In this document: piece by piece, positions 9,629-39,875 of the stretch
Numbering within the stretch: the stretch's first letter is position 1
Layout of the letters: each line of letters begins with the position of its first letter
Assembly: GCA_023247575.1 (NCBI GenBank)
Contig: JAHFGE010000004.1
Coordinates: forward strand, 1-39,875
Source of the DNA: Candidatus Omnitrophota bacterium
GTDB lineage: Bacteria > Omnitrophota > Gorgyraeia > Zapsychrales > Fredricksoniimonadaceae
Direction: 5' to 3'
DNA length: 39,875 bases
Position numbers and translations under genes: made by a program
Notes under the pieces: model-generated
What the model was told of the DNA's origin: nothing
The model's database searches: none
What the model saw: only the letters and a program-made list of their open reading frames with translations

Positions 9629-9632
9629 ATTT

Positions 9633-15145: not shown

Positions 15146-15148
15146 AAC

Positions 15149-20343: not shown

Positions 20344-20369
20344 GGCCATGGTACTATTTGCTCATGGCC
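20344..20369. terminator. Hairpin ggccatg-N12-catggcc between convergent comM and the coiled-coil gene
   Basis: Read directly. It overlaps the last codons of the minus-strand gene. No strong T-tract. Confidence 0.3.
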
Positions 20370-24900: not shown

Positions 24901-25323
24901 TTAATTACCTCTATTCCTAAATAAATTTTGGAACCATTTGGTTGAAGTCAAAGTTAAGCCTCCCATCACCAATATATTCATCAGCAAAAACAAATGCATC
25001 CCTTGTGTCTGCCAAAAATAGTATTTATTCACCCATAAATTAATCAAACAAACACAAGAGATAGCCACAATGATCATATGAGGAATAAAAAATCGTACGT
25101 ATGAAACTACTGCATTATGATCCTTTGGTGTTACAAAATTGGTACGCAGTAACTTGCCTTTGAAAATCGCCTTTATAAATGCGTAAACAACATAAGGACT
25201 TGATGCTATTTCAGCCAATCCACTTCTCCACCAGATACTCTGCTCGCTTGATGGATTAATCAAAAACCGCCCTCCCCACCCAATTAAAATAAAAATTTTA
25301 TTTAGGTAACTCCGAAGTACCAT
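24901..25323 (-). pseudogene. Small 4-TM protein resembling only the C-terminal part of a processive GT2 (cellulose-synthase-like) glycosyltransferase
   Basis: EQSIWWRSGLAEI resembles a degenerate Q(R/Q)xRW box and is followed by a FVTPK motif and TM helices. The catalytic D,D,D part is absent. An in-frame stop at 25396-25398 bounds it upstream. The track start is TTG at 25359 and the ATG is at 25323. Confidence 0.4.
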
Positions 25324-26095
25324 TTCCCTGCGCCTTGACGAGTTTACGGACGGTGTCAAACAAACCTTCCAAGATACGATTCGCTTCCGTTTCGTCTATT
25401 TCAAATTGTTCGATAATTTGTAGGACACTACTGCCATCATACCAGGCTTCAAATATCTTGATGTCGCGGGGCACATGGTAGCCGGCGAGGTCATTGATTA
25501 ATTGTTCGATGCCTCCTTCATAAGGCAACTCGACCTTTTCTCCTCCTTGATCCACTATTTCTTGGTTTTCAGCCACCGCCTCTTCCTCTGGAGAACCTAA
25601 TCCTTCATCCGTATCAATATCTTCTTCCTCGTCTTCTCCGGGGGGAAGATTCGGCTCATATCCTAAGCGCCGATAAGCTTCAGCCGCAGGAATAATATCC
25701 AGCCATGTAAGCTCGTCATCCTTACCCGTTGCCGGACTCTGAAGATTGATCTGGCCGGTCGACCTTAACAATCGGGTCGTTTCAGACTTAAGATGCCTCT
25801 TGAGTGCTTCATGAACAAATTCCCTCAATGTTTTACCTCTTTCTGGTGTATATTGAAGCATTTGGTCGATAACAATCTCGCAACCCGTCGCGCGCAAGTT
25901 ATCCGCCCAATGGCTGTCACTGCTGCGAGAATGCCGACTGACAAACTCTTCGATCATGGGGTAAAACGATAAGACCAAATCCGAAAAGGCTTTGGAGTCA
26001 TGCCGTATCCGCTTCCAGCAATCAAGCTGTTGGGTATCGCTCAACTCTTTGGCTGCGGCCAATTGGCGCCTCCACTGTTCATCCGCCGATGGCAT
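25298..26095 (-). other. Sigma-70-like module (regions 2 and 4) forming the giant ORF C-terminus
   Basis: ADNLRATGCEIVIDQMLQYTPERGKTLREFVHEALKRHL resembles region 2.1-2.4. IFEAWYDGSSVLQIIEQFEIDETEANRILEGLFDTVRKL resembles the region 4 HTH. An in-frame Met lies at 26095. Confidence 0.5.
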
Positions 26096-29000
26096 CTGCG
26101 GTATTTCAGGTTTAACCGTCTCTTTGGCTGGAAAATATTTTTTCATGTCTGTGGTCAACATCATCGGACGGAAAATAACTAAAAGCTCCATTTTATTCTC
26201 TGGACCAGGGATCTTTTTCATTCCATACATAAGCACAACTCTTTCTCTGCTATTTAACGTTGCCGCCCGTAAAAAAACCCAGTCACCTTCGACGTATCCT
26301 TTCGATTCAAGATAACCCGTTGGGAAATATAAAATACGACTTTCAATATTCGCATCCAAACTGATCCCCAAACGAGGGTTGCCGCCGACATCTCTTTTAG
26401 AAAAAAGTTGTACCCTAACTCTCGCCCATTTAGGAGGCATTCGTTTACCTTTTAAGGCTTGCAACACATAATGCATCCGAAGCAAAACTAACTTTGGACC
26501 TTCCTTTGAAGGCAGATAAACCCCAACCGGGGCGTGACGTAAACAAACTTCCTGATCTGGGCTAATCATGGCATAAAAAGCAAGAGCCGTAGGTAAAAGA
26601 CGAAACCGTCGACCTTTTAATAAATAATCGTAAATTTCTTTTCCCCCTCTGATCTGCGGAATATAAAAAGCTGCCCGGCCAAATCTTTTTGTCATTCCCG
26701 GCGTCGCCTCAAAGGGGAAGGGACCATCATCCAGTGTCAGTCCCGACCCTCTTCTGTGATCGCCTTTGAAGATAAATCTCTCTACTTTATGGATGAGAAG
26801 AGGATCAAGTGGAGCTCGAAAATAGGTCCTTTTTGCTTGCGCTGGTGGCAATTGCCCCTGTACTCCATAGGCATGCTCGATCGCTGGGTAAATATCGACG
26901 GCTGGAATTCTTTTCTCTAATTCGAAGGCTGACAACAATTGTGACATATTTTCCGGTTTCATATATGAAAACCGTGGATCAATTGATTTTACTCTATCCC
27001 CCATTTCTTTGAGCGTCTTCCCTTGCCGCAAACGCCTCAACTTCATGAACGGCCCCCAGGACAAACGCTCCCGCGCCTCTAAATAGTTCATTCCTATTAA
27101 AAATCGGGAAGGTTCAATATCGAGAATGGAAGCAATATGTAGGATATCTCCTGGTCTGTATTTGCCATCGCTTTGACTTGCTAAAAGATTACGCCGATAG
27201 TCATAAATATCCTGATAACCTAACAGCCTTGCCATCTCCTGGTCAGAAATACCGCGGTCATTCGCAATCGCCTTTATTCTTGCCCCAAAAGGTATCGATG
27301 CCAGCTGATCTACCAGCTGTAAATCACTAAGCGGCCGCTCATTGAATTCGGCCAACAAGGCTTTGCCTTTGCGTTGTTCCCGGATGTTTACCGCCTCTGG
27401 TAATCCACCGCTGACCATGGCGATATTCATGTCGGGGAGAAAAGTCAGACGGAAAGTTTGTTTGGCGATGAAATCCAATGACCTCTGATCGTGCGGGTTG
27501 TCTGATCCATAACCGCCAACCCGCAAAAATATCGGCACCAGTGAAGACTCTCCGGCCGAATTCCCAGGGCCGAAAATAACCTCGGCCCATGGGTGTGTCA
27601 ATTCAGTTGGAACAACAATGGCATAATCGCCAATCTCTATTTCACGAGATGGGGAAATTGGCATCGCAAGTCTCGTCACCAGGATCTGATATCCTTTCAA
27701 ATAAGCCCAGCCCAAATCTTCTGTCAACCGTTTATGCGAAATTGTTGGAAAAAAGGAATCGATCGTTTGAATTGGTTTATAATCATTATCGACCATACGG
27801 ACGGTAGGGATAAATCCACACTGGCTCTCGCTTCCTTGAGCGCTATTGACTGTAAAATAATAAGGAAAGGCAAACTGATCAAAGGCCAGCGAAACTGTTC
27901 CCTTTTTGAATCGCTCGTCAAAAAAGAAATAAAACGACGAATGGAGTTCGGGTAGGGAAAAAGTTTCCAAAGCAAATAAAATTTCTGAAAGGACCTGATG
28001 GGCATAGGGAACAACGTATCCTTTAACCCAGAATAAACCACTATTTGCAAATCCTTCGATTTTTCTTATTTTAAATACTTTTGCTTTCCCCAAGACCCTA
28101 ATACTTTGGCCCTCCTGATTTGTTTGATAGGCAACCAGTAGATCCTCAGCCCTTTCTTTCCCAAGAAACTGAACACCCTCGATACCACCGCTTTGATCAA
28201 CATGCAATGAATACAGGGCGCCGCGATAACCCGGAAAACGCACATCAAACAAGGGACGGACAGTCAGCCTTTCCATTGAAGGAAGGATTGACTCGATCCG
28301 TTTGCTCTGTATAATCTCTGCCTTACGTAGCCCTTCCATGGTTTCAAAAACGACCGCCGCAATTCGTCCGTCTTTAATCACACTGTTGAGCCTTCGGTTG
28401 ACGTAAATCGACCCACCAAAACCGGAAGCCTCAACAGGAACCCAGAATCCCAAATCCGGGACAAAGCGCCATTCGATCCGGATATCTTTTAGACCACTTT
28501 GATTCGCAGCCCTGACCTTGAGGGCGTTGATGCCCTGCGGCAGTTCCGCAGCGAAGATTCTGTTAGAGAAATCATCATTTAATAAGGGCAAATACCCATC
28601 AATGATCCGATGCCTCCGGCTCCATTGCCCTTCGGATAATTCCTTAAAGGTATCTTCACGGTTTCCTGCCCATCTATCAGCAATATATTGGGCATAGTAG
28701 GAAGACCGCAGATTAAACCTACGGACAAACGCGTCATGGAAAACCACAGGCGAAACCTTTCGTAGAACCGCGTGAATCCGTTTCTTGTCATCACTGCGGC
28801 CAACGGAGTCTAGCGTCTCTAGGATCATCTCTGTCAAATGTCCTGCCGCCTCTTGATTCTCACCAAAACCCTCCTCTTTCCCAGCAATCATCACTTCCCA
28901 TGGCCTTTGGATTTCAAAAATACATTTTACCTCTAGACCCCGAGCCTTAATCTCATCAAGGTTCTCTATCTCCTGTTGGCTTAACATATGCCCCGTACGT

Positions 29001-32000
29001 AATCCCCCGGCGCCAGGTAGATCCCGTGGATCAAAACTTACTAGATCATTGTCATCAAAAGACGAGACCGGAATTCTATCCAGAATAAATCCAGCGTTAA
29101 TCCCTGCTTTGTATATATTTCTTCCCGCTACCCAGGCCTGGGCAACGGCAATTTCTTCTCCCTCATGGTGGATATAGATAGTGTCCCCTTCTTTCCTGGG
29201 GCTCATCTGGCTAAGCTTCTCCCAGAGAAGATCAACCATCTCACCCCGTCCTGTATCGCGCAGTTTTTTGCAGAAACAATTCACGTCGGATACTTGACGT
29301 AAAAATATTCCCAACGGCATCCCAACTGGCCTCCTTGCGGGAACCTTTACAACAGTAGGTACGGTCTGCGCCTTCTGTTTTCTTTTGAGTTCTTCCCTAC
29401 GTCCTTCTTCTCGTAATTTTTCAAATTTTTGTTTTAGTGCTGCATCAATCTCAAGTTCCTTTCCAACCGACCAACATGGACTCGGCTCATTCAACCTCCT
29501 GAAATAATTAATTTCAACGTAAAGACGCCAGCCTACTCTCAAAAGAACGTACCCTCCAGCGACGATTAAGAAAAACATCCTGTAAAAATCAAACATGACA
29601 TAAATGGCAGAGGCGATTACTGGAACCAATGGAGCTCTATTGGTTACCATCTCGACTTTCGTTAGAGGGCGGCTTGTGATATTCGCATTTGTATCAGCCC
29701 TGGCTATGTCGCCAGTCAATAGTATGAACCCGCAGGTTACAAGCGCAAGCGGGACAAGGAACAAAGGCAGTATGCGCCCAGTCCGGCCGGGCTTGCAAAT
29801 CGACGGCTTCCCACAAATCGACGGCTTCCCCTCATTGACAACTTCTAACTGAGGTGCTATAGTTTGATTAACTAAAAAAGAGGATTGCCTTACGGTGCGC
29901 AAAACAAAAAACAGACTCAAAATGAATATTAAAACCCCGAATGGTAAAAGATTTAATGCCGACAAGTGGCTTACGGAACATTTCGAAGAGCTTGTCAATA
30001 AATTTCCCGGCGAATATATAATTGTGGCTAATGGAAAAATATATCGTAAAGGCCCCCCCCGCCAATTGAGAGATAGGGCCTTAAAAGAAAATCCAGGTGC
30101 TGTTATTATGGGGCACCGAGTTCCCCGTCCAAAAGATTTTCTATGCGCGCTCATCGGGCAATAAAGTTCCCTTACAAAGCCTACAGGATGTTTCCCTGTC
30201 CCATAGTTCCTGTTCAATTGCAGGGACCTAAAGGTTGGTTTACTGCTGACGCCTATGTGGATAGCGGGGCTTTTTATTCTGTTTTCTGTATTCAAGATGC
30301 TGAAATGATCGGGCTTGACTACAAGTGCGGTCGACGAAGTAGCATCTGTGTCGGGGACGGAGATTCTATCCCTGTATATTTCCATACCCTCCCTGTAACC
30401 ATAGGAAATATTTCTCTCAACGCTATAATCGGATTCTCCGAAAAACTGAAAGTAGGATTTAATCTCCTCGGCCGCAGAAGCATATTCGAACGATTTGTGG
30501 TGATCTTTGATGACGTCAGACGCCAGATCACCTTTATCCCGCGCCGATGAATTAACTTTCTCTAAAACATCAGCCCTGGCTATGTCACCGGTCAATAGTA
30601 TGAACCCGCAGGTTACAAGCGCAAGCGGGACAAGGAGTAAAGGCAGTATGCGCCCTGAGGACGATTCGACGGGCGCTGGCACAGAGGTAGACGAATTAGG
30701 TGCTGTGTCCCCGGAATTCTGTACTTTTCCCCATTCATCAAAGATAGCAGGCGACACCTCTGCCATCATCGACGGCAAAATTGTGCAGGCCAAGACAACG
30801 AGCAGCACAGGAACCGTCCCTAAATGCGCCAGCCCCGCTGCCCCGCCGTTGGCGGGGGCAAGAAGCGGGGCCAGCGCAATACCAACACCCACCGCTGCCG
30901 CTGCACCTACAAGCGCAGTATTTACTATCCTTGCTGATTTGTAAACTGTACCGTTTGCTTGACGAGAAATGTCTTGAGTTCTCTGGAGGGTTAAATGCCC
31001 CCTCAATGCTTGACCCGCTGCCGTATATGATGTATGCTTTGAAATGAAAAGAGGACTTATAATGCTAAGAGTGAACCCCTTGACCCAGAGAGAAACCAAA
31101 GCGGTTAATGTATACAAAGCACTGTTGCTTAAAGCATTTCCAGGCCGTATCCAAAACTTTTTACTTTTTGGGTCCAAAGCCCGTCGAACGGCTGGTCGCT
31201 GGTCAGATATCGATCTTCTAGTTGTTCTTACAAAAAACGGCCGCAAGGCCCGCAAAGAAATCGCCGCGCTCACCCATGAGCCGATTGCCAAATACGGCGT
31301 TGAACTTTCCCCTGTCGTAGTGACCGCGTCCGAGATGAAGGAATGGTCGCCATTTATCGCCCACATCAAAAAAGAAGCAATTCCCATATGAACAAGAAGC
31401 AAGAATACGTAAACCTGCGCCTGAGACTGGCCAAAGAGAAATTGAAAGTGGCGGAGCTTTTGGCTAAAAGCGGCAGTTACCGCGACTCCATTTCCAGAGC
31501 CTATTATGCGATCTTTTATGCCGCAAAGGCCTTTTTGCTGTTTCACGGGCAGGACCCGACTTCTCACAAAGGTGTCAGCGTTCTTTTTCATAAATTCTGT
31601 GCCACGCACAAGCACCCTGACGCAAGTTTCGCCAAAATGCTTTCTGTTCTTCAAGAAGCACGTCAAGAAGCCGATTACAAAGAAAAAGTACGCCTTACGA
31701 AACGCGACGCCAAAGAAGCCGTCGCCTCTGCGAGAATTTTCCTTAAGGAAATCTACCGTCTCATTCGGGGCCACTAAAAGCCAAAGTTTCGCAATTCCCA
31801 GCGTCCTTACTGCCGTTGAGGCCATGACCTTCATTGTGCCCCACCCAAAGAAATGGCAGCCATCCAAGCCATTGCTTGCGGCGAGAGGCGCGGCGGCGGG
31901 TTGAGTCTTATCGTCACGTAATTTCTTCAAAGACTCCTGGAAATCACACAATACGGCAGCGGTGATTTTGTGCGATCGGCTGGATTCTATTTCCAAAAAT

Positions 32001-35000
32001 TGACTCATCGTGTTCTTGGCGCATTCTTCAACAACGTTACGGTATTCTTGCTTCAACTCAAGCGGGAAAAGAACAGTGATGGTTTTAATAACTGCTGCAT
32101 TAAGCCGACAGGCTGATTCGCCGGGATTTTTTGGTCTTAACATTTCGGCCATGGCCCGGGCAAAAGTTAACTTCCACTCGTTGGGGCACTCAGTCCACAA
32201 ACATTTCAATTGATCCAGAGCTTTCTCTGGTGTAATACGTCCAAACACCTTTTCTCCCCAAATGGCATCCGCTAAGGCAATCATTTGTTCTCCCAAACTG
32301 TTGCGAATATAGTCAGGAATTTGTCCCTCGCCTAAGATGACAGGGGCAGGTCCTTCAACGGCCCTTGCTTGAGGCAATGGCTGGTGCAGGACAGTCGCAT
32401 CGGCTACGGTCAAGGCAGGCATGGGAATTGACGGTGAAGACGCTGGCTTCGATGGAACGGATTTCTGCGGGAGACCAACAACATTGCGACCCATAATGTT
32501 AGAAAGGACGTCTCTTTCCCGGTGCTCAGGGATCAGGCCCGCTTCCCATCTATTTATCTTCCAAGTATACATTCTCAGGAATTGTGTAAAACCTGTGGGA
32601 TCACGGTCCTGCCAATGGCCCAAATATTGTTCACGTTCTTCTGCCGTCTTAAATGAACGAAGCACCGGCACATCAAAGACATCTCCCTCGATTAACAGTT
32701 TTAACGTCACAGTTTCCCATGTCGCGCAAAGCCTCTCTCGAACGAGTTTCAATGTTTTAGGATATTTCCCGGCATCCTGCCACGCCTGGGAAAATGTCAT
32801 TGCTCGCGTTATAATAACTGGGTCCACACCCAGGGCCCGTGCCAGGCAGAAAAGATTGTAAGGCAATGGGGCGCCGGCCTGCCACGCAAACCGCCCTTCA
32901 TTTTTAACGATGCCCCCTTGCTCTCTTTCCATATTAAAGTAACTTGTATATCCTATGTTGGCCTTCTTCAAGAATTCTCTGATGTCTTCATCAGGGCTCA
33001 CCCAAATCCTCAAAAATGCGATACGGTAACCGGTGGGTTTATCCTTAAGATGAACCAAGACTTCTTCCGGGAGAGCCAGTGTGCATGAAATCTCCCCATA
33101 ATGAGCCAGAGGTATAATAACTTTATCTTCCCACTGCACGTATGGTGTTTGCGGATTGATCCGCCCTTTAAATTCCTTAACTTTATCTTTAACTTCCTCA
33201 TAGGCAGCCATTCGTTCTCTATTAAGCCTCCCAATACGTTCCTGCCCGGCGGCTCTTTGGACAATGATGTTGCGGATTGCCTCTTCGTCTTCGAGAGCGG
33301 TTTCACCTGCTTTCCAGGCCTCTGCTTTGTCGGCTGTAAATCCTGATCCTAACAGCGCCTGTACACCTTGCGTCGAGAAACGTATGGAACCATCAAACCA
33401 ATAGGCCAAGAGGGCAGCGAGAATGTCTTTTCCAGGAGTTACCAGCCCCATCATGTTTTCTCGCTGATCATCTTCCATAAACGGATTAAGCCGACGGACG
33501 TCTATGCCGAGCATATGGGCCGCATCGGTTTGATTTCTATTTGCAGCAACAAGCGCCAGGGAATACGCACGCCAATGCAATTCTTCCAAAGACAACGTGG
33601 CCGGGTGCTCTGCTTTCAGAAAAATGCCGAATTGTTCTCCCAGAATTTTCCTTGCCCGTCCTGGATGACGTAATTCGGAATGCTCATGCAAAATAAACGC
33701 CAATGGTGTTAATGTTTTCTGGTACAATCCGCGCTCACTGACACCCAAGCGATCCCTCAATTCCTTTCTCACTCCTGCTCCCATTTCGGTGGCATCCTGT
33801 GACATGGCTGCAATCGTCGACAGAATTCCGATAAGTTCAATAAGTTCAACGAGAGTCGCCTCTTCTTTACCTGCACTTTCTTTTCGCAACCAGCTATAAA
33901 AAGACGGCCATATAAAGCCCGCGGGACCGGATAGGAGTGTTTGAACTTGTGTTGATTCACCTGATTCCTGTAAAAGGCGTACGGCCTGGGTTTGTTTTTT
34001 CTGCGCAGCACGGGTGTCCAAGCCGATGATGTTCTCTAAATAGCATGCCACCAAAGTCAGCGGCTGCGGGCTCCGTTTTTTGAGAACAGTATATTCGCCA
34101 AGGGCATCCAGCAAAAATTTGTGTCTTCGCTCAAGGTCGGTTGAGGCAAAGCCCCTGAGGGCCATGATCAACGTTTGCCACTCGAGGGTCTTTTTGGCTT
34201 CCTCCAGCGGCACATTCTTTTGCCGTTGATCCGATAACCATTTTAAAAAACGCTCCAATAGGGTACCGGTTGTTGGGAGAGGTTTAGGGATGACTTTCAA
34301 AGGAGCTGCTGGCAATTCGACAGTTATTTTTGCATCTAAAGGCGCAACGGCCTTAGTCGTTGGACCAATTGCTGTTGATTGAACTGGCGGGGCCAACGGG
34401 GCCACCCCCACTGCCGCTGGTTTCGTTTCCGTTAAACTTTTGGCCGCTGCTTCCGCCGCCGGTTGATCTTGACTGGCAGATGGCAAGGCTGGTCCAGTAA
34501 CTGGCGTTTCAGCACCAGTCTCAACCGGACCTTTCACAGGGCTACTGGTTATCCGAACCAATGTGGCCACCAGTTTGTCATAATGCAATCTGGCGTTTGA
34601 ACGGACGGAAAGGAACCTTTCTGGTGTTGAAAATTTGTACTGAGAATCAAACGTACCCAAAAGCCGAAAGACCTCCGCCAATTTCCCACGAATAACCTCC
34701 ACGGTAGTAGTGCCTAATTGAAAATTTAGAAAATCAAGTTCTGCATCTACCAGGCTAAGCGATGCCTCAAGAAGCATTCTAGGGCCTTCCTCTAACATAT
34801 CCATGTTACTGGATGCCTCTGTCAACAAATGTCTGACCCTTTCCCTCGCGGCATCGACTATTGTTCTTTCCCTTTGAAGTTCTTCTGCGGCCTGATGAAT
34901 AATCTCTCTGGCTCTGGTAAGATACCGGTTAAACTCGTTAAGATCGAATCTCTCCGGCCTAGATCTTTGTATAGAGGACCACGATGTTGTGCAAAGAAAG

Positions 35001-38000
35001 GCAAAGCCGGCGATGGCCGCAAGGAAAAGCCACGGGGACCCGGCTGCCAATGCCAATACAGCAAGGAAAAACACTACCGGCGAGCGAAGCTTGGTGAGAT
35101 CTATCGCCGGTTTTCCTTTATAGTTCAACTGTCCGTTTCTATTCGGAAGTTTTGCGGTTCTAGCCTTCAGCAATGCGCTCCATAGGCTATGACGGATAAC
35201 TTCAATGGTCAGCCGATGTTTTGCCCTTTGGCGACCGTGCGAGAATACAAGTCGTCCGTCAAGATAAACCTCTGTTTGAGCGCCCGGAGTTTTATAATCG
35301 TTCATGATTCTTCGAAAGAAATTTCTCAACAACCCATTGTAAGAAGCTGCAGGCGGAACAGAAAAATCATAACGGACCAAATCCGGCCGGTCTTTGAGGT
35401 TGTCCAGCACATGCTCCAGACTAGTGACCACACCGCGCGGGTTAAGCCACACTGCCTGCGCCGGCAGGACGGCCGTGAATTCCTGATGACCGCTGCGAAA
35501 TACAGCACGTGCTGTACCCATGATGGTTCGCCGCAGGCAATCCACTAAATCTCCACCGACGAAAAGGCCGGCCACTGGCAACGGCTTCGAGGGCGTAAAA
35601 TGTCCCCATTCGCTCTCGTGTGGCCTTAGTCTGAAACGACGCAGTGCGTCCGGATAAAACCACTGCCCATTGATCAAAATATAGCGGCGCTCGAGTGTGG
35701 GCCAAGCGAGCACTCCTTTATACTCGTCCATGAAGAGCTCATCTGGATGCGTTAGAACAAAAAAGTTTAGGGGTGTGCCCCTTAGCTTGAAATTCGACTG
35801 GACGACGGACGCCGATACTATACCGAGGAGGAAAAAGCCGGCGATGGCGAGAACAACAAGTAATGCAGGGACTATGCCATACGAAACAATCTTGTGGACC
35901 GTTACCCAAACCCGTTTCGAGGCCGCCGAAAGCGACTTCTTAAGGGACTGTTTGAGCATATACCGTCCCGTTTTACCGGGCAGCGCCAAAAGACCACTTG
36001 AGAGAAAACCAGCTTTCGGGAAGAACCGGAAGGCAATGGTAAGAATTTTCTTCGGCAAATATGTCAATACCAAAGCTAAAGCTATCGTTGTCCAGAAAAA
36101 TTCTTCGGTAATCTGCCCAAAAGAAGAACGCAGTTTAGGATGAACCGCTACCCACATCTCTTCAAATTCAAGTGCCTCAACAACCAGATGTCTTGCGAAC
36201 TTCTCGATCTTGCGTGACGGAATGCCGGACATGACTCCAAGACCCCAGATAATGGTCCGTGTCGTCTCAACGTAATGCTGAATACTGACGACCGGTCCCT
36301 TAAAAGGCGGCGGCGCAAGAAAAATGAATCCCTTATGAATGAAACCAGCAAGCCGTATGTTTTGTTCTTCAAGATGATCAAAAAACTTCTTGTCGCCGAC
36401 AATGATGATGTCGTTAGGCTCTATCCTCTCGAGCAAATTCCTATTTATTGGTTGAATTCGAGCCACGTTTTCCTCCATGTCATTCGGAAAATAATAGCGG
36501 ACATTTTCTAGATACCCTGCGCCGATGGGGCCAATTCTTAATGCCTCCTTCACACTATGCACCTGCCACAATGACAGCGATTTACCGTCGAGTGTCCGCC
36601 AGGCAAAGCGTTCTCGCTGAGAGCGATGAAACACCGCCGCCAACCAAGCCAAGCCGACCATGGTAAGGGCGCCGATAATCCACGGCGCCGCGATATGCAC
36701 AGCGGCCATAAGCCCGCCCCAGCCCGGCCCGTCAAAAACTGATCCAATTTTTGACAAGGTCTCGCCAAGACCGAAGGTCATGGCGGACACGTCGGGAAGC
36801 ATGAGGGCGAGGGACCATAGATTAAGGTATTGCAACGACGCGGGGAAAATAGATCCGATACTGCCAGTGATATGAATTCTGGCTTGACGTGATAATCGTT
36901 CTATACTACGATGGCTTTTGTGGAGAATGCCGTCAAACCAATCAACTTTAGCTCGCACGCCAAGGAACAATTTACCTACCGTGGAACAAACGAAAGCGAA
37001 ATAACTTCTGCGATCCGCAATTCGCGGTGGGAAAAGGCGGAACTCGGGCGCATGCAATGCAAGAAAGATCTTACCTACAATAAAGATTGGAACAATAAGT
37101 ACTACGCCACAAAACAAGTAAAGCCAATATTCATTGAGGAAAAAGATAGAATTGCAGTGATTACCGTTTACGTGTATTATTTCTAATAAGGAGGAAACAT
37201 GCGCATTACTTATGACCCAACTGTTGATGCCTTGTATATAAGATTCGAGGAAACTACCGTTACTACCAAGCACCTTTCCGAGGGCATAGCCGCTGACTAC
37301 GCCCCAGACGGCAGCCTTGCCGGCATCGAAATTCTGGACGCGGTAAGACGCTTTGGGGGAGACAAGACAACTCTCAAGAAGGTTACTCTTGAAGAAATAG
37401 GTTTGGCTGCTTAGGAAGACACCGACCAGTACAATCAAGGAAAGAATGTTTGTCAATATCCCTGGCGGGCCATGAAACAACGGGCCGAACCAGCCCGCCA
37501 CGTCGGGAAGCATGAGGGCGAGGGAAATGAAATTAAGACATGCTGTCCACCGAGCCATTGGACTGCTCTGAGCCGGCTCTTGAAGTCCGAACTCTTTAAG
37601 GAGATTCTCTTTATCAAAGGGCTGTTGACCCATACGCGCAAAATACTCGGCATTGTCGATGAAATTTTGTATGTCCTTGAATGGAAATGCCCTAAGTATT
37701 GAAAATCCCTGCGGTGTCAATAAGAGGACCTTAAAAAAGAATTGATACGTTCCCTCAACAGCTGCTTTAACTCCTTCGGCATTGAGACCAAGAATAATAT
37801 ATTTCAATAAATCTGCGGATAAATGAACATAAAAAGCATAGTAATCGGCATATTGAAGAGTCAGGGCTGATTCATGGACATGGCCGCGGCGCTGTTGACT
37901 AATATCTGGAGAATCCAAAGCCTTTTGATAGGCCCCTTCGATAGCTTCGCTTCCTCCCGGAACATAATCGGTCCTTCGGATTATGGCAAATATTTCGGCA

Positions 38001-39799
38001 AAAACCTCTTTTTGGTTCTCGTCACCAATCACGCCACGGATGGCTATTTGAAACTGCTCCTTGATCCCTCCAGCCAGCCTCTTTAAAACAAAATTAAAAT
38101 CTTCATGCGCCCCCTGTCCTTCCATGGGAAGATCAAGAATATAATGCAATTGCAAAATCGTCTGGGTGGCGTCGGCAGGTTTGCCTTTCCCTGGAGGCAG
38201 CTGACGCAAATGAAAATCATGCAGTAAAGCTGCTAAAAAGGCCGTGATCAAATCCCTTTTGGTTTTAATCAATCCGCGCCCGCGGGCTGTCTTTAAATTG
38301 CTCAAGGTCACAACGACATTATGCAGATGGCTATGAAAGAATTGCCACTCTAAGCCCATCTGTTGATACAAAGCGGCAATGATTTCGATAAGCTTTCTTG
38401 CGCTCTCCAGTTCACTGGGATTAAGATGGACGGGTAAACCATTATCGGGACCTAAAAATTTTAGAATCTCGTTGGTAAACTGACGGATGAGCGCCCTGAA
38501 CCGCCCCGCCGGATCTTCCGCAGAAGGAAATGCTGACTCCCATGCCTCACGGTCAAGGGGGCCATAGAGGACATTTACGAGATCCCTTTGGTCGTCTCTG
38601 TTGGCTGCCGGCAGAATAGTACCTCCAATATCACTACCTGCAAGCAGCACCAATCCGCTGATGATTGTCGCTACTAAAAACCCCAGCGCCCCGTGGCCGC
38701 TTAAAACATGCCCCAGCAACCCAACGCCAAAAACCACGAAGATCATCAAGCCAATCATCGGCCACATCCGTCGATTGACAAGGCTTAAGAAAAATGTTAT
38801 ATTTAAACCAAAAGGAATTTCTCTATGACTAAACTTTTGCAGGCTACTTACGAACACGGGCGACTGAAACCATCGTTGCCTCTCAATCTCCCTGAGCACC
38901 AGCGGGTCATTCTGGCGGTTGTGGTCACTGAAGACGACATCCCCGGCCTTCTGACTGCTAAACTGGCTGAAACGGGCAAAAGCTTCGACTTCCTCAACGA
39001 CCCTCGCGAAGACATTTACAATCTTTCTGACGGCAATGAACTCTAGCAAAAAATCTATTGAACGTGGCGATGTTGTGCTTATTCCTTTCCCTTTTACTGA
39101 CCTATCCAGTACCAAAGTACGCCCGGCCGTCATTATTTCCGCCAACCCACAGCAAAATGACCTTGTAGTCGCTTTTATCTCTTCTGTTTTAACCGATAAA
39201 CCCTCCAATAGCGATGTCGTCCTGGCCAGCAATGCTCCCAATTTTTCTGCGACCGGTCTTAAAAAAGATTCTGTTTTTAAAATGAACAAACTCGTCACGA
39301 TATCTTCAGCGCTAATTTTAAAACGGTTAGGCCACGTAGCCACCGCCTTCCAAAACCAATTAGACAATGCTCTTAAAAAAGCATTAAATTTATCATAAAA
39401 TACCTCTGCCATTGTTGCGGTCAAAGGAGCTGTAGGCGCCATGGCCGGGACAGGCGCCATACCGCTACGAACTGCGAACTGTGTACTATAAAGGCGGGCA
39501 CTATGTGGTGAGCTTGTCGAACCATTAAAGGTCCTGTGCATGGCAATGGCATCTTGCAGGGTGCCAGCATTCACCATATTCCATGCCGCTTCACGGATGG
39601 CCTGGCGCTTGTGCTTGGCCCCATACAAATGAAGCCACACAAAGATATGGATGGCCCAACGGCCTATAATCCCATAGGCCCAGCGTAAGATGGGGGTTTC
39701 AATCCCCGGGGCCCATTCCAATAAAATCCTGTCCGCCAAAGGCCGGGTGGAGGCAAACCGACCCAACAACCAGTACGCCATCCTGAAGGGCGGCAACAT
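25298..39799 (-). CDS. Giant 4,833-aa multi-TM, multi-module protein of unknown function
   Basis: 14,502 nt without a stop, in a genome where neighbouring genes use TAA, TAG and TGA. It has several hydrophobic TM clusters and HD-like, XRE-HTH-like and sigma-70-like segments. The first ATG is at 39799. The frame is also open for the last 25 codons to the window edge, which is not statistically informative. Confidence 0.7.
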   Translation of the reverse strand: MLPPFRMAYWLLGRFASTRPLADRILLEWAPGIETPILRWAYGIIGRWAIHIFVWLHLYGAKHKRQAIREAAWNMVNAGTLQDAIAMHRTFNGSTSSPHSARLYSTQFAVRSGMAPVPAMAPTAPLTATMAEVFYDKFNAFLRALSNWFWKAVATWPNRFKISAEDIVTSLFILKTESFLRPVAEKLGALLARTTSLLEGLSVKTEEIKATTRSFCCGLAEIMTAGRTLVLDRSVKGKGISTTSPRSIDFLLEFIAVRKIVNVFARVVEEVEAFARFSQFSSQKAGDVVFSDHNRQNDPLVLREIERQRWFQSPVFVSSLQKFSHREIPFGLNITFFLSLVNRRMWPMIGLMIFVVFGVGLLGHVLSGHGALGFLVATIISGLVLLAGSDIGGTILPAANRDDQRDLVNVLYGPLDREAWESAFPSAEDPAGRFRALIRQFTNEILKFLGPDNGLPVHLNPSELESARKLIEIIAALYQQMGLEWQFFHSHLHNVVVTLSNLKTARGRGLIKTKRDLITAFLAALLHDFHLRQLPPGKGKPADATQTILQLHYILDLPMEGQGAHEDFNFVLKRLAGGIKEQFQIAIRGVIGDENQKEVFAEIFAIIRRTDYVPGGSEAIEGAYQKALDSPDISQQRRGHVHESALTLQYADYYAFYVHLSADLLKYIILGLNAEGVKAAVEGTYQFFFKVLLLTPQGFSILRAFPFKDIQNFIDNAEYFARMGQQPFDKENLLKEFGLQEPAQSSPMARWTACLNFISLALMLPDVAGWFGPLFHGPPGILTNILSLIVLVGVFLSSQTYFFKSNLLESCLVSPKASYRVQNFDAGKAAVWGVVSGYALGKVLGSNGSFLESYIQGINSWVISNAHVSSLLEIIHVNGNHCNSIFFLNEYWLYLFCGVVLIVPIFIVGKIFLALHAPEFRLFPPRIADRRSYFAFVCSTVGKLFLGVRAKVDWFDGILHKSHRSIERLSRQARIHITGSIGSIFPASLQYLNLWSLALMLPDVSAMTFGLGETLSKIGSVFDGPGWGGLMAAVHIAAPWIIGALTMVGLAWLAAVFHRSQRERFAWRTLDGKSLSLWQVHSVKEALRIGPIGAGYLENVRYYFPNDMEENVARIQPINRNLLERIEPNDIIIVGDKKFFDHLEEQNIRLAGFIHKGFIFLAPPPFKGPVVSIQHYVETTRTIIWGLGVMSGIPSRKIEKFARHLVVEALEFEEMWVAVHPKLRSSFGQITEEFFWTTIALALVLTYLPKKILTIAFRFFPKAGFLSSGLLALPGKTGRYMLKQSLKKSLSAASKRVWVTVHKIVSYGIVPALLVVLAIAGFFLLGIVSASVVQSNFKLRGTPLNFFVLTHPDELFMDEYKGVLAWPTLERRYILINGQWFYPDALRRFRLRPHESEWGHFTPSKPLPVAGLFVGGDLVDCLRRTIMGTARAVFRSGHQEFTAVLPAQAVWLNPRGVVTSLEHVLDNLKDRPDLVRYDFSVPPAASYNGLLRNFFRRIMNDYKTPGAQTEVYLDGRLVFSHGRQRAKHRLTIEVIRHSLWSALLKARTAKLPNRNGQLNYKGKPAIDLTKLRSPVVFFLAVLALAAGSPWLFLAAIAGFAFLCTTSWSSIQRSRPERFDLNEFNRYLTRAREIIHQAAEELQRERTIVDAARERVRHLLTEASSNMDMLEEGPRMLLEASLSLVDAELDFLNFQLGTTTVEVIRGKLAEVFRLLGTFDSQYKFSTPERFLSVRSNARLHYDKLVATLVRITSSPVKGPVETGAETPVTGPALPSASQDQPAAEAAAKSLTETKPAAVGVAPLAPPVQSTAIGPTTKAVAPLDAKITVELPAAPLKVIPKPLPTTGTLLERFLKWLSDQRQKNVPLEEAKKTLEWQTLIMALRGFASTDLERRHKFLLDALGEYTVLKKRSPQPLTLVACYLENIIGLDTRAAQKKQTQAVRLLQESGESTQVQTLLSGPAGFIWPSFYSWLRKESAGKEEATLVELIELIGILSTIAAMSQDATEMGAGVRKELRDRLGVSERGLYQKTLTPLAFILHEHSELRHPGRARKILGEQFGIFLKAEHPATLSLEELHWRAYSLALVAANRNQTDAAHMLGIDVRRLNPFMEDDQRENMMGLVTPGKDILAALLAYWFDGSIRFSTQGVQALLGSGFTADKAEAWKAGETALEDEEAIRNIIVQRAAGQERIGRLNRERMAAYEEVKDKVKEFKGRINPQTPYVQWEDKVIIPLAHYGEISCTLALPEEVLVHLKDKPTGYRIAFLRIWVSPDEDIREFLKKANIGYTSYFNMEREQGGIVKNEGRFAWQAGAPLPYNLFCLARALGVDPVIITRAMTFSQAWQDAGKYPKTLKLVRERLCATWETVTLKLLIEGDVFDVPVLRSFKTAEEREQYLGHWQDRDPTGFTQFLRMYTWKINRWEAGLIPEHRERDVLSNIMGRNVVGLPQKSVPSKPASSPSIPMPALTVADATVLHQPLPQARAVEGPAPVILGEGQIPDYIRNSLGEQMIALADAIWGEKVFGRITPEKALDQLKCLWTECPNEWKLTFARAMAEMLRPKNPGESACRLNAAVIKTITVLFPLELKQEYRNVVEECAKNTMSQFLEIESSRSHKITAAVLCDFQESLKKLRDDKTQPAAAPLAASNGLDGCHFFGWGTMKVMASTAVRTLGIAKLWLLVAPNETVDFLKENSRRGDGFFGVAFRKAYFFFVIGFLTCFLKNRKHFGETCVRVLVRGTEFMKKNADTFVRSRVLPVKQQKGLCGIKDRIIGSGNGVAVTAAFSQKLRHFQFLFGQSQAQVYVFLLLVHMGIASFLMWAINGDHSFISDAVTTTGESSTPYLAIGSWVSAAISLRALRPFFVRTTRRSISDQRPAVRRALDPKSKKFWIRPGNALSNSALYTLTALVSLWVKGFTLSIISPLFISKHTSYTAAGQALRGHLTLQRTQDISRQANGTVYKSARIVNTALVGAAAAVGVGIALAPLLAPANGGAAGLAHLGTVPVLLVVLACTILPSMMAEVSPAIFDEWGKVQNSGDTAPNSSTSVPAPVESSSGRILPLLLVPLALVTCGFILLTGDIARADVLEKVNSSARDKGDLASDVIKDHHKSFEYASAAEEIKSYFQFFGESDYSVERNISYGYREGMEIYRDRISVPDTDATSSTALVVKPDHFSILNTENRIKSPAIHIGVSSKPTFRSLQLNRNYGTGKHPVGFVRELYCPMSAHRKSFGRGTRCPIITAPGFSFKALSLNWRGGPLRYIFPLATIIYSPGNLLTSSSKCSVSHLSALNLLPFGVLIFILSLFFVLRTVRQSSFLVNQTIAPQLEVVNEGKPSICGKPSICKPGRTGRILPLFLVPLALVTCGFILLTGDIARADTNANITSRPLTKVEMVTNRAPLVPVIASAIYVMFDFYRMFFLIVAGGYVLLRVGWRLYVEINYFRRLNEPSPCWSVGKELEIDAALKQKFEKLREEGRREELKRKQKAQTVPTVVKVPARRPVGMPLGIFLRQVSDVNCFCKKLRDTGRGEMVDLLWEKLSQMSPRKEGDTIYIHHEGEEIAVAQAWVAGRNIYKAGINAGFILDRIPVSSFDDNDLVSFDPRDLPGAGGLRTGHMLSQQEIENLDEIKARGLEVKCIFEIQRPWEVMIAGKEEGFGENQEAAGHLTEMILETLDSVGRSDDKKRIHAVLRKVSPVVFHDAFVRRFNLRSSYYAQYIADRWAGNREDTFKELSEGQWSRRHRIIDGYLPLLNDDFSNRIFAAELPQGINALKVRAANQSGLKDIRIEWRFVPDLGFWVPVEASGFGGSIYVNRRLNSVIKDGRIAAVVFETMEGLRKAEIIQSKRIESILPSMERLTVRPLFDVRFPGYRGALYSLHVDQSGGIEGVQFLGKERAEDLLVAYQTNQEGQSIRVLGKAKVFKIRKIEGFANSGLFWVKGYVVPYAHQVLSEILFALETFSLPELHSSFYFFFDERFKKGTVSLAFDQFAFPYYFTVNSAQGSESQCGFIPTVRMVDNDYKPIQTIDSFFPTISHKRLTEDLGWAYLKGYQILVTRLAMPISPSREIEIGDYAIVVPTELTHPWAEVIFGPGNSAGESSLVPIFLRVGGYGSDNPHDQRSLDFIAKQTFRLTFLPDMNIAMVSGGLPEAVNIREQRKGKALLAEFNERPLSDLQLVDQLASIPFGARIKAIANDRGISDQEMARLLGYQDIYDYRRNLLASQSDGKYRPGDILHIASILDIEPSRFLIGMNYLEARERLSWGPFMKLRRLRQGKTLKEMGDRVKSIDPRFSYMKPENMSQLLSAFELEKRIPAVDIYPAIEHAYGVQGQLPPAQAKRTYFRAPLDPLLIHKVERFIFKGDHRRGSGLTLDDGPFPFEATPGMTKRFGRAAFYIPQIRGGKEIYDYLLKGRRFRLLPTALAFYAMISPDQEVCLRHAPVGVYLPSKEGPKLVLLRMHYVLQALKGKRMPPKWARVRVQLFSKRDVGGNPRLGISLDANIESRILYFPTGYLESKGYVEGDWVFLRAATLNSRERVVLMYGMKKIPGPENKMELLVIFRPMMLTTDMKKYFPAKETVKPEIPQMPSADEQWRRQLAAAKELSDTQQLDCWKRIRHDSKAFSDLVLSFYPMIEEFVSRHSRSSDSHWADNLRATGCEIVIDQMLQYTPERGKTLREFVHEALKRHLKSETTRLLRSTGQINLQSPATGKDDELTWLDIIPAAEAYRRLGYEPNLPPGEDEEEDIDTDEGLGSPEEEAVAENQEIVDQGGEKVELPYEGGIEQLINDLAGYHVPRDIKIFEAWYDGSSVLQIIEQFEIDETEANRILEGLFDTVRKLVKAQGNGTSELPK
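26880..27290 (-). other. Two XRE-type helix-turn-helix-like segments inside the giant ORF
   Basis: RGISDQEMARLLGYQDIYDYRRNL and RLRQGKTLKEMGDRVKS...SQLLSAFELEKRIP. Confidence 0.4.
29693..29779. repeat. 87-bp direct repeat, copy 1 (flanks module A)
   Basis: 83/87 identical to 30569-30655. On the minus strand it encodes GRILPLFLVPLALVTCGFILLTGDIARAD. Confidence 0.95.
29796..29831. repeat. 18-bp tandem duplication (caaatcgacggcttccc[a/c] x2), encoding GKPSIC x2 in the giant frame
   Basis: Read directly. It abuts the module A -35 hexamer. Confidence 0.9.
29835..29863 (+). promoter_or_regulatory. Promoter TTGACA-N17-TATAGT for module A
   Basis: -35 at 29835-29840 and -10 at 29858-29863. GAGGA SD at 29880-29884, 10 nt before the GTG at 29895. 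Confidence 0.6.
29895..30164 (+). CDS. DUF5678-like small protein (module A, gene 1)
   Basis: WLTEHFEELVNKFPGEYIIVANGKIY follows the DUF5678 pattern. GTG start with SD (alternative ATG at 29922). Antisense to the giant ORF. Confidence 0.5.
   Translation: MRKTKNRLKMNIKTPNGKRFNADKWLTEHFEELVNKFPGEYIIVANGKIYRKGPPRQLRDRALKENPGAVIMGHRVPRPKDFLCALIGQ
30143..30550 (+). CDS. Retropepsin-like (clan AA) aspartyl protease (module A, gene 2)
   Basis: PIVPVQLQGPKGWFTADAYVDSGAFYSV has the DSGA catalytic motif in its usual context. Overlaps gene 1 by 22 nt. Confidence 0.6.
   Translation: MRAHRAIKFPYKAYRMFPCPIVPVQLQGPKGWFTADAYVDSGAFYSVFCIQDAEMIGLDYKCGRRSSICVGDGDSIPVYFHTLPVTIGNISLNAIIGFSEKLKVGFNLLGRRSIFERFVVIFDDVRRQITFIPRR
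30569..30655. repeat. 87-bp direct repeat, copy 2 (flanks module A)
   Basis: Offset from copy 1 is 876 bp (3 x 292). Encodes GRILPLLLVPLALVTCGFILLTGDIARAD. Confidence 0.95.
31010..31038 (+). promoter_or_regulatory. Promoter TTGACC-N17-TATGCT for module C
   Basis: -35 at 31010-31015 and -10 at 31033-31038. GAGGA SD at 31051-31055, 6 nt before the ATG at 31062. Confidence 0.5.
31062..31391 (+). CDS. MNT-type nucleotidyltransferase (antitoxin of HEPN/MNT pair)
   Basis: LLFGSKARRTAGRWSDIDLLVV is the canonical GSxxR...SDxD motif. I prefer the ATG at 31062 (SD, downstream of the promoter) over the track start at 31044. Confidence 0.88.
   Translation: MLRVNPLTQRETKAVNVYKALLLKAFPGRIQNFLLFGSKARRTAGRWSDIDLLVVLTKNGRKARKEIAALTHEPIAKYGVELSPVVVTASEMKEWSPFIAHIKKEAIPI
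31388..31777 (+). CDS. HEPN domain protein (toxin of HEPN/MNT pair)
   Basis: SRAYYAIFYAAKAFLLFHG...TSHKG and RQEADY HEPN motifs. ATGA overlap with the MNT stop. Confidence 0.88.
   Translation: MNKKQEYVNLRLRLAKEKLKVAELLAKSGSYRDSISRAYYAIFYAAKAFLLFHGQDPTSHKGVSVLFHKFCATHKHPDASFAKMLSVLQEARQEADYKEKVRLTKRDAKEAVASARIFLKEIYRLIRGH
34270..34555 (-). other. Pro/Ala/Thr-rich low-complexity linker in the giant ORF
   Basis: SSPVKGPVETGAETPVTGPALPSASQDQPAAEAAAKSLTETKPAAVGVAPLAPPVQ... Confidence 0.7.
36788..36814. repeat. 27-bp exact direct repeat, copy 1 (flanks module B)
   Basis: cacgtcgggaagcatgagggcgaggga, identical to 37499-37525. Encodes SLALMLPDV in the giant frame. Confidence 0.95.
36911..37186 (+). 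CDS. DUF4258-like protein (module B, toxin-like)
   Basis: INFSSHAKEQFTYRGTNESEITSAI ... IAVITVY follows the DUF4258 pattern. Confidence 0.55.
   Translation: MAFVENAVKPINFSSHAKEQFTYRGTNESEITSAIRNSRWEKAELGRMQCKKDLTYNKDWNNKYYATKQVKPIFIEEKDRIAVITVYVYYF
37199..37414 (+). CDS. DUF2283-like protein (module B, antitoxin-like)
   Basis: MRITYDPTVDALYIRF...DGSLAGIEILDA is the typical DUF2283 signature. Strong AAGGAGG SD at 37189-37195. Confidence 0.75.
   Translation: MRITYDPTVDALYIRFEETTVTTKHLSEGIAADYAPDGSLAGIEILDAVRRFGGDKTTLKKVTLEEIGLAA
37499..37525. repeat. 27-bp exact direct repeat, copy 2 (flanks module B)
   Basis: Offset from copy 1 is 711 bp (3 x 237). Weaker similarity continues for ~18 bp. 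Confidence 0.95.
37950..38420 (-). other. HD-phosphohydrolase-like region of the giant ORF
   Basis: HSHLHNV...(~35 aa)...AALLHDFH (HD dyad at 38216-38221) ... IIRRTDY has H..HD..D spacing. Confidence 0.35.
38775..38803 (+). promoter_or_regulatory. Promoter TTGACA-N17-TATATT for module D
   Basis: -35 at 38775-38780 and -10 at 38798-38803. AAGGA SD at 38812-38816, 8 nt before the ATG at 38825. Confidence 0.6.
38825..39046 (+). CDS. DUF104/AF2212-like antitoxin (module D)
   Basis: ATYEHGRLKPSLPLNLPEHQRVILAV matches the antitoxin fold signature. Overlaps the toxin gene by 11 nt. Confidence 0.6.
   Translation: MTKLLQATYEHGRLKPSLPLNLPEHQRVILAVVVTEDDIPGLLTAKLAETGKSFDFLNDPREDIYNLSDGNEL
39036..39398 (+). 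CDS. PemK/MazF-family toxin (module D)
   Basis: ERGDVVLIPFPFTDLSSTKVRPAVIIS is the canonical MazF N-terminal beta-strand signature. 120 aa. Confidence 0.85.
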   Translation: MNSSKKSIERGDVVLIPFPFTDLSSTKVRPAVIISANPQQNDLVVAFISSVLTDKPSNSDVVLASNAPNFSATGLKKDSVFKMNKLVTISSALILKRLGHVATAFQNQLDNALKKALNLS

Positions 39800-39841
39800 G
39801 CCTGCCCCGACCGCAGCGTCGGGGGCGGGCCCTGTAGATTT

Positions 39842-39869
39842 ATTATAGGGCGGCGACTTTGTTACCCAA
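39842..39869 (-). promoter_or_regulatory. Weak candidate promoter TTGGGT-N16-TATAAT upstream of the giant ORF ATG
   Basis: Minus-strand -35 at 39869-39864 and -10 at 39847-39842. Hairpin ccccgac-N6-gtcgggg at 39805-39824 lies between it and the ATG at 39799. Confidence 0.3.
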
Positions 39870-39875
39870 TCGAGC

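Follow-up and report, generated by a model that had tools for sequence, protein, structure and literature searches.

A predicted sigma-like cassette at the end of a very long membrane-protein gene from an Omnitrophota bacterium

Contig JAHFGE010000004.1 of the Candidatus Omnitrophota bacterium assembly GCA_023247575.1 (one complete contig of 39,875 bp, hereafter the window) carries on its minus strand an exceptionally long open reading frame (ORF), which we refer to as the giant gene. Here, we present evidence that this ORF is the 3' ~14.6 kb of a longer gene of the Omnitrophota type, encoding a very long mosaic protein that is anchored in the inner membrane and tailed by a cassette, a reading to which we give a probability of roughly 60%. 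As judged from alignments, the cassette, which consists of the modules M1, M2 and M3 (amino acids (aa) 3644-4828), is a conserved, portable unit shared by otherwise unrelated giant proteins, and the last of the three has a predicted fold resembling that of sigma-70-family proteins.

The ORF was first noticed from the sequence alone, and the original prediction proposed following it up with profile searches and structure prediction on tiles of the protein and with a search for orthologues and their synteny. Below we give the results of that work, including those that changed the initial picture of the gene, and weigh what they suggest about its product.

A coding frame open to the contig edge

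The ORF extends over 25298..39799 of the minus strand (ATG at 39799, TAA at 25298-25300) and encodes 4,833 aa. From base composition we estimated the chance of a stop-free run of 4,833 codons at ~1e-114, and the other two frames across the same stretch contain 256 and 292 stops. A codon-usage likelihood model, for which the window's 18 other sizeable genes served as the training set, preferred frame 0 in 10 of 10 tiles of 500 aa, so the ORF looks like host coding sequence over its whole length. Stop-codon reassignment is ruled out as an explanation because all three stop codons terminate neighbouring genes (TAA 14, TGA 4 and TAG 3 among 21). Two elements of the original prediction, a single uninterrupted coding frame and the irrelevance of recoding, are thus confirmed.

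The product size of 4,833 aa did not hold up. Upstream of the ATG, 25 of 25 in-frame codons are free of stops to the end of the window at 39875. Moreover, the ENA contig ERZ27297570 (39,308 bp), a near-identical twin shifted by ~500 nucleotides (nt) and with matching gene order, has a giant-gene prediction of 5,025 aa that bears the mark given to genes running into a contig end. With the frame open to the contig edge and the longer call in the twin, the gene is 5'-truncated; 4,833 aa is a minimum, and the complete gene has at least 5,025 codons. A contig from a third assembly, Logan (L081), spans the last 662 codons of the gene at 100% identity.

Hydropathy analysis of the available part revealed 11 uncharged hydrophobic stretches of 19-56 aa, 5 of them of two-helix length, plus weaker ones. 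These make up ~16-20 hydrophobic helices, grouped in seven clusters between four large soluble blocks (aa 400-766, 1612-2697, 3072-3273 and 3426-4833). The several hydrophobic clusters noted at first sight are therefore borne out, as is a P/A-rich linker, which contains 17 P and 19 A per 106 residues (aa 1740-1845). The features of the ORF upstream of the cassette are as follows.

25298..39875, minus strand: giant ORF, 5'-incomplete (4,833 codons plus 25 open codons to the contig end)
38633..38767, minus strand: hydrophobic cluster 1 (aa 345-389), 45 aa without charge that probably form a helical hairpin
37700..38347, minus strand: block labelled HD-like in the original prediction (aa ~485-700), with 'LLHDFH' at aa 525
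37061..37501, minus strand: hydrophobic cluster 2 (aa 767-913), from hydropathy
36626..36730, minus strand: hydrophobic cluster 3 (aa 1024-1058), from hydropathy
35789..36085, minus strand: hydrophobic cluster 4 (aa 1239-1337), from hydropathy
34967..35083, minus strand: hydrophobic cluster 5 (aa 1573-1611), from hydropathy
34265..34567, minus strand: P/A/T/V-rich low-complexity linker (aa ~1745-1845), inside the soluble block of aa 1612-2697
33485..33577, minus strand: Fis-type helix-turn-helix (HTH)-like motif NRNQTDAAHMLGIDVRRL (aa ~2075-2105; PF02954, E 0.069, sub-threshold)
30587..31708, minus strand: hydrophobic cluster 6 (aa 2698-3071), ~6 helices, from hydropathy
30569..30655, minus strand: 87-nt direct repeat, copy 1, encoding the signal-peptide-like segment GRILPLLLVPLALVTCGFILLTGDIARAD; 95% identical to copy 2
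29693..29779, minus strand: 87-nt direct repeat, copy 2, 876 nt (292 codons) downstream of copy 1
29525..29980, minus strand: hydrophobic cluster 7 (aa 3274-3425), with a K/R-rich segment behind it, from hydropathy

Outside the cassette the protein is dark to the libraries that we searched. Pfam, NCBIfam and PADLOC gave no match on the whole chain, a PDB sequence search with the whole protein was empty, and Pfam on ten overlapping tiles of 600 aa returned sub-threshold noise only, including the Fis-type HTH near aa 2088. The HD-like region of the original prediction is unsupported, since despite its 'LLHDFH' it has no Pfam match on the tiles and no PDB match by phmmer, in both cases even at E<=10, and the word-indexed search found no homologue of aa 400-770 at E<=1. 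A single match came from PHROGs (phrog_8, 'transcriptional regulator', aa 4170-4313, E 4.5e-5). We rejected a phage or defence origin of the gene, as this sole PHROG match is to a generic XRE regulator and PADLOC was empty.

Searches for relatives of the whole protein by word-indexed search and by single-protein pattern scans of genome and JGI metagenome contigs found none, 80 ComM-anchored loci showed no similarity to the giant protein by tblastn, and aa 1-3643 had no homologue in the searches made of that part (domain libraries, word-indexed search and local comparisons). The word-indexed search also missed a relative with 42% identity over 940 aa that exhaustive HMMER found; its silence on aa 1-3643 is therefore weak evidence that this part is an orphan. 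Giant products cut by contig ends are likely to be absent from the word-indexed set.

All three pairs of direct DNA repeats in the gene encode hydrophobic segments and lie 711-876 nt apart; besides the 87-nt pair, they comprise 36788-36826/37499-37537 (39 nt, 87% identity) and 34976-35017/35807-35848 (42 nt, 71% identity). The 240-290-aa units between the repeats are mutually unrelated rather than diverged duplicates (z ~0). As a speculation, the short repeats could be substrates for recombination or could mark gene conversion. We also observed an 18-nt perfect tandem repeat (1.9 copies, 29796-29830), encoding GKPSIC-GKPSIC, just upstream of the second signal-peptide-like segment.

The C-terminal cassette and the proteins that carry it

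Exhaustive HMMER searching with aa 3634-4833 uncovered 18 relatives, and mapping them onto the protein resolved three modules: M1 (aa ~3644-4130), M2 (aa ~4130-4570) and M3 (aa ~4570-4828). The relatives have no Pfam domain in the parts that they share with the cassette, and profiles of the three modules found no extra diverged copies in the window giant or in other giants. An AlphaFold2 (AF2) model of aa 4125-4833 built from eight sequences (mean predicted local distance difference test (pLDDT) 71, domains ~80-90) divides this region into a helical domain (~4160-4345), a beta domain (~4361-4543), a second helical domain (~4572-4679), an acidic linker and a third helical domain (~4763-4825). 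The elements of the cassette are as follows.

27410..28870, minus strand: M1, conserved domain (aa ~3644-4130), an N-terminal helical bundle and a beta-rich body
26750..27337, minus strand: M2a, helical block with two putative XRE-type HTH motifs (aa ~4155-4350), from phrog_8, a PDB profile search and AF2
26165..26719, minus strand: M2b, conserved small beta domain (aa ~4361-4545), from homologue mapping and AF2
25763..26086, minus strand: M3, predicted sigma-2-like helical domain (aa ~4572-4679), from the RpoS profile match, AF2 and Foldseek
25514..25762, minus strand: acidic linker, predicted to be disordered (aa ~4680-4762), from AF2
25325..25513, minus strand: M3, predicted sigma-4-like HTH domain (aa ~4763-4825), ending 8 aa before the stop, from the RpoS profile match, AF2 and Foldseek

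M3 gave the clearest structural assignment. A profile of six M3 sequences searched against the PDB had RpoS as its best match (E 0.0023), in a collinear alignment that extends from region 2.2 to region 4.2. Foldseek against the PDB returned top ~45 matches that all belong to the sigma-70 family (probability 1.0, E to 1e-5, 250-330 aligned columns), among them sigma-32, sigma-S, SigA, SigB, SigH, sigma-E, WhiG and pro-sigma-K (including 8vjl_B and 1or7_A). On the strength of the RpoS profile, the AF2 model and the Foldseek matches, we regard as sound the assignment of M3 to a predicted divergent sigma-70-family fold, with sigma-2 followed by sigma-4 in the canonical order, and the sigma-like C-terminus of the original prediction is supported. 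The assignment places the fold only, and membership of a functional sigma family stays putative.

The N-terminal half of M2 is weakly XRE-like. Beyond the PHROGs match, a PDB profile search aligned it with the 434 repressor, C.AhdI and HipB at E 0.5-1.8, and its AF2 model is all-helical; Pfam HTH_3 had no match in M2 on the tiles. Together, the phrog_8 match, the weak PDB matches and the helical model lend support to the HTH-like segments that were first noticed in the sequence.

The AF2 model of M1 is confident (pLDDT 80.9, predicted template-modelling score 0.76). In Foldseek comparisons with the PDB and BFVD, no match exceeded a TM-score of 0.13-0.17 over the domain, and an M1 profile search of the PDB was empty. 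M1 recurs in two complete giants with multiple transmembrane (TM) segments, P0062 (5,153 aa) and P0072 (4,655 aa, with phosphoglucomutase and PALP domains), and also occurs as stand-alone proteins of 570-940 aa (P0063, P0064, P0066, P0069, P0070 and P0071) that have classical N-terminal signal peptides, for example MKIKKQINHIIIFLLAQTFLFGQCVWA|GQ.

One relative is a metagenomic locus (L088) that we found by an alignment-based scan of metagenome contigs, on the 77-kb contig ERZ795055 NODE-178. One frame is open over its entire 23,555 nt (2-23554, plus strand; 7,851 codons, both ends running off), and P0056 and P0061 are fragments of its protein. Residues 3324-4519 of this protein form a complete M1-M2-M3 with 43% identity to window aa 3654-4827, collinear over ~1,190 aa, while the remainder contains methyltransferase, GNAT, NUDIX, TPR, PPDK/PEP-utilizer and PALP domains and has no similarity to window aa 1-3643. 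In both proteins a TM helix and a K/R-rich segment come before the cassette. In L088, however, the cassette is internal and is followed by more than 3,300 aa (NUDIX, TPR, PPDK and PALP), whereas in the window it is terminal, and the GC content of the two also differs (53% in L088 versus ~45% in the window).

In a second relative, a low-GC (38%) Logan contig (L086), similarity to aa 3671-4822 runs through 1314-4811 in one frame across an in-frame TGA at ~1449-1451, where gene calls split the ORF into products of 482 aa and 1,101 aa. Since the similarity continues in frame past the TGA, the 1,101-aa protein (P0058) is, on this alignment, the tail of a longer interrupted ORF and only apparently stand-alone. 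The TGA could result from a nonsense mutation or a sequencing error, or the organism could read TGA as sense.

The downstream slot and the chromosomal setting

Downstream of the giant gene, and on the same strand, are a short membrane ORF, a gene for a glycoside hydrolase-like protein and, after 76 nt, a PilZ gene, confirming the neighbourhood of a GT2 remnant, a glycosidase-like gene and PilZ described in the original prediction.

24901..25359, minus strand: membrane ORF of 140/152 aa, a GT2 tail remnant, overlapping the 3' end of the giant gene in another frame
23031..24899, minus strand: 622-aa GH2-TIM-like protein with an N-terminal signal peptide, starting 1 nt after the remnant ORF
22607..22954, minus strand: PilZ protein, 115 aa (PF07238, 31.4 bits versus a cutoff of 22.5 bits)

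The GH2-TIM-like gene itself scores 19.5 bits against a cutoff of 21 bits, its homologues match PF02836, and it has full-length homologues at 41-51% identity. At another locus (L085), aa 3175-3300 of a 3,314-aa protein match the 152-aa ORF with 45% identity (E 1.6e-34) and form the TM tail following a GT2 domain at aa 2943-3146. This homology begins at 25299, in the stop codon of the giant gene and in a different frame. No trace of the GT2 catalytic part was found in any frame of the window, leaving only the 126-aa tail, and on the other side the similarity of the L088 protein to the giant protein stops 5 aa short of the giant-gene stop. Because the GT2 homology starts at the stop codon, the rest of the GT2 gene is gone and the cassette similarity ends 5 aa before the stop, the boundary resembles a junction, formed by recombination or deletion, at which the cassette end came to abut a truncated GT2 gene.

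The GH-like/PilZ pair recurs behind other long genes. In L084 the long protein before it has PPDK domains and measures at least 2,821 aa, in L085 it follows the 3,314-aa protein, which carries CoaE, LOG, HEAT and C-terminal GT2 domains, and in L083 it sits at a contig edge; behind the giant gene for P0062 lie two PilZ genes and genes for a sugar ABC importer. The long proteins of L084 and L085 have no similarity to each other or to the window protein. Comparison of these loci indicates that the slot is conserved in several Omnitrophota and that the long gene occupying it is hypervariable. Proteins in which GT2 and GH are fused also exist (P0053-P0055). A pair of a GH2-TIM-like gene (~630 aa) and a PilZ gene was also compared in L089, MutS lies nearby in L084 and L090, and L084 has in addition a homologue of the coiled-coil protein of the window.

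The host is, from sequence similarity, an Omnitrophota-type bacterium. ComM shares 74% identity with its counterpart in a Candidatus Omnitrophota metagenome-assembled genome (MAG; L001) and 72% with the one in a second, PVC-type MAG (L002), synteny with both extends from the biotin genes through the coiled-coil protein, and several homologues of the GH-like neighbour are annotated as Candidatus Omnitrophica/Omnitrophota. The stretch from PilZ to the giant gene has no counterpart in these two closest syntenic MAGs. The remainder of the contig is ordinary chromosome, with tatC, an ABC transporter, pgi, mnmA, a biotin cluster, birA, a gene for a GAF-GGDEF cyclase, tRNA-Leu, tRNA-Ala, rlmN, accA, a LysM-YkuD transpeptidase gene, a DUF212 gene and comM. 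The biotin cluster (6094-11740) consists of bioA, bioD, a methyltransferase gene, an alpha/beta hydrolase gene and bioF, followed by birA. The tRNA-Leu(CAA) and tRNA-Ala(GGC) genes are adjacent (15061-15226), downstream of the GAF-GGDEF gene. Two further minus-strand ORFs encode a secreted coiled-coil protein of 602 aa (20354-22162), which has longer homologues, of 990-1,413 aa, at the corresponding place in L001, L002 and L084, and an 88-aa product with a signal anchor and a coiled coil (22159-22425), which precedes the coiled-coil gene with a 4-nt start overlap.

Readings of the gene and comparison with known systems

The location of the cassette bears on what it might do. In the window, in L088/P0056 and in P0062, a K/R-rich segment follows the last helix before the cassette, which by the positive-inside rule suggests that the cassette is cytoplasmic and is consistent with its predicted DNA-binding folds. 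Placed in the cytoplasm by these flanks, the cassette would be a regulator that binds DNA or RNA polymerase and is held at the membrane by the giant protein, to be released possibly by proteolysis, as are pro-sigma-K and sigmas controlled by anti-sigma factors. The state of a giant envelope protein could in this way be passed on to transcription, plausibly of the adjacent polysaccharide and c-di-GMP genes. Such a membrane-tethered sigma/HTH regulator, for which the predicted fold, the charged flanks and the gene context argue, is a tentative proposal. An extended version is a long shot: the cassette as a trans-envelope signalling device in one polypeptide, in which a sigma-70-family factor with accessory DNA-binding domains, made as the cytoplasmic tail or an internal block of the giant, would be freed or activated when the giant is processed, assembly, damage or contact with prey or host would directly reprogramme transcription, and the repeats would shuffle cassettes among giant genes in the GH/PilZ-linked slot.

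A number of observations weigh against this picture of a cassette-tailed membrane giant and its regulatory role. The Sigma70_r2 and Sigma70_r4 models of Pfam and NCBIfam had no match at E<=10 on the C-terminal tile, and the RpoS segment 'FSTYATWWIRQ' aligns to 'LREFVHEALKR' or its profile equivalent, with loss of the region-2.3 aromatics (YATWW), which makes canonical promoter melting doubtful. The signal peptides on the stand-alone M1 proteins suggest that M1 can reside outside the cytoplasm, at odds with a cytoplasmic cassette. Near the giant gene there is no gene for a protease or site-2 protease, and the window contains no genes for a type II secretion system (T2SS) or pilus (in the 25 kb on the downstream side; the upstream side lies outside the contig). 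Scans of the available part with Pfam and NCBIfam, as a whole and in tiles, gave no SecA-like, dockerin, C39/S8 peptidase or carbohydrate-active enzyme (CAZyme) domain. The topology derives from hydropathy and flanking charges only, and the three assemblies (window, ENA and Logan) may share reads and so are not independent. Finally, the documented length of at least 5,025 aa, with the 5' end missing, lies below the 10-kilo-amino-acid (kAA) and 30-kAA thresholds of the giant proteins reported from the phylum.

Some of the same observations would fit the main alternative, a fused operon or polyprotein, in which once separate genes for membrane and secreted proteins were concatenated by loss of their stop codons, the hydrophobic segments are relics of signal peptides or anchors, the chain is cut up or internally initiated and the whole chain is without function. 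We think this unlikely. It would explain why the 95%-identical 87-nt repeats encode a signal-peptide-like segment that ends 'ARA|D' and opens successive ~290-aa units, and why two more repeat pairs fall on hydrophobic segments. M1 does exist separately, with N-terminal signal peptides, in L086 an in-frame stop divides the cassette from what lies upstream of it, the GT2 tail belongs to a long protein in L085 but forms an ORF of its own in the window, and cleavage of giant chains is an open question for West-Roberts et al. (bioRxiv 10.1101/2023.11.21.568195). The units between the repeats are unrelated, however (z ~0), the library scans detected no peptidase domain, and we saw no sign of internal ribosome-binding or processing sites. 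More than 4,858 codons have been kept open by selection, and the L088 cassette is likewise embedded in a single frame.

We consider it improbable that the protein is instead an envelope or predation effector lying mostly outside the cytoplasmic membrane, a role proposed for Omnitrophota giants, which would act in attachment to prey or host cells or in polysaccharide handling with the GH2-like enzyme and in which the HTH and sigma folds would be co-opted structurally. Its host is of the right phylum, its GH2-like neighbour has a signal peptide and matches the GH2 flanks reported beside giants, M1 is rich in beta-hairpins with a faint Rhs/MORN-like 3Di resemblance, and the stand-alone forms of M1 are exported. 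Yet the available part contains no adhesin, lectin, dockerin, CAZyme or SecA-like domain by the same library scans, T2SS and pilus genes were not found in the 39.9 kb, and the Foldseek TM-scores of M1 are 0.12 or less. The K/R-rich flanks before the cassette in the window, L088 and P0062 point to the cytoplasm, and a full sigma-2 plus sigma-4 fold beside XRE HTHs would be hard to account for outside it. That the frame is an artefact of chimeric assembly, or a decayed, non-functional remnant that is stop-free by chance, is highly improbable. Such an origin would agree with the lack of homologues of aa 1-3643 in the searches made, with the absence of the PilZ-to-giant region from L001 and L002 and with a GC content of ~0.50 mid-gene versus ~0.45 for the contig, but is contradicted by the ~1e-114 probability of such a frame and the frame-0 codon signal in every tile, by the same sequence and gene structure in the Logan and ENA assemblies, by the 43% conservation of the C-terminal 1,190 aa with L088 and by a helix spacing like that of known long proteins of the phylum.

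Sigma factors held at the membrane are known from pro-sigma-K with SpoIVFB, from sigma-E with RseA and from extracytoplasmic function (ECF) sigmas with fused TM extensions. These are either small sigmas with a short pro-sequence or N-terminal sigmas with a C-terminal TM part. The window protein has in common with them a predicted sigma-2/sigma-4 fold at the membrane, which by analogy would suggest control by release. It differs in that more than 4,500 aa and ~16-20 helices come before its C-terminal sigma-like domain, in the lack of the region 2.3 aromatics from M3, and in that no partner protease or anti-sigma was found.

Processive GT2 enzymes, glycosidases and PilZ also come together in exopolysaccharide operons controlled by c-di-GMP, of the BcsA/BcsZ and PgaCD type. 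Like these, the window has a GT2 TM tail, a probably secreted GH2-TIM-like protein and PilZ, the L085 slot has an intact GT2 domain before the GH-like/PilZ pair, and the GAF-GGDEF gene on the contig fits such operons. In contrast to them, the GT2 catalytic domain is gone from the window and PilZ is a small protein of its own, not a domain of the synthase. The tie between these exopolysaccharide-type genes and the giant gene is positional only.

The closest known counterparts are the giant proteins of the phylum itself. The original prediction held giant genes to be rare, which is not upheld: long membrane-anchored proteins are common in Omnitrophota (bioRxiv 10.1101/2023.11.21.568195; bioRxiv 10.64898/2026.06.07.730766). 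Nielsen & Lui 2026 (bioRxiv 10.64898/2026.06.07.730766) catalogued Omnitrophota proteins of at least 10 kAA. TM helices or a signal peptide occur in 94% of them, 46% belong to the TM-only class, no database gave a domain match for 15%, and at 30% identity 80% are singletons; GH2 genes are the commonest catalytic flanks. The window gene resembles these in its Omnitrophota host, scattered TM helices with no signal peptide seen, darkness to Pfam, lack of a full-length relative and GH2-like gene in the flank, and the cassette relatives L088 and P0072 correspond to their 'multi-enzyme' class. Its TM density, at ~one helix per 250-300 aa, is higher than theirs, and unlike them it has no secretion or pilus genes nearby within the window. 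West-Roberts et al. 2023 (bioRxiv 10.1101/2023.11.21.568195) described Omnitrophota giants of more than 30,000 aa with numerous TM regions, carrying SecA DEAD-like, dockerin, C39/S8 peptidase and carbohydrate-binding domains and with T2SS genes nearby. With these archaeovorin/dockerin-type giants the window gene shares the host phylum, many TM regions, long unannotated stretches and the same question of cleavage; it differs from them in that no SecA-like, dockerin, peptidase or carbohydrate-binding domain was found in its available part and no T2SS genes in the window. In host, membrane anchoring, Pfam darkness, uniqueness and GH2-like flank, the window gene therefore fits a known kind. Sigma factors, HTHs and transcription come up in neither preprint, PilZ is unmentioned in that of 2026, and the cassette and the link to PilZ appear to be undescribed in both.

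Long and giant genes of Omnitrophota are thus recognised, functionally opaque and mostly unique in sequence, a picture that the window locus leaves unchanged. What the locus adds is a ~1,190-aa cassette, with a predicted sigma-70 fold and predicted XRE-type HTHs, that is shared by otherwise unrelated giants; a slot before the GT2-tail/GH2-like/PilZ genes in several lineages that provides a positional link to c-di-GMP and polysaccharide biology; and direct evidence of modular exchange, including a probable junction exactly at the giant-gene stop codon. If the sigma-like tail does bind RNA polymerase, a part of such a protein would for the first time have a regulatory role that can be tested.

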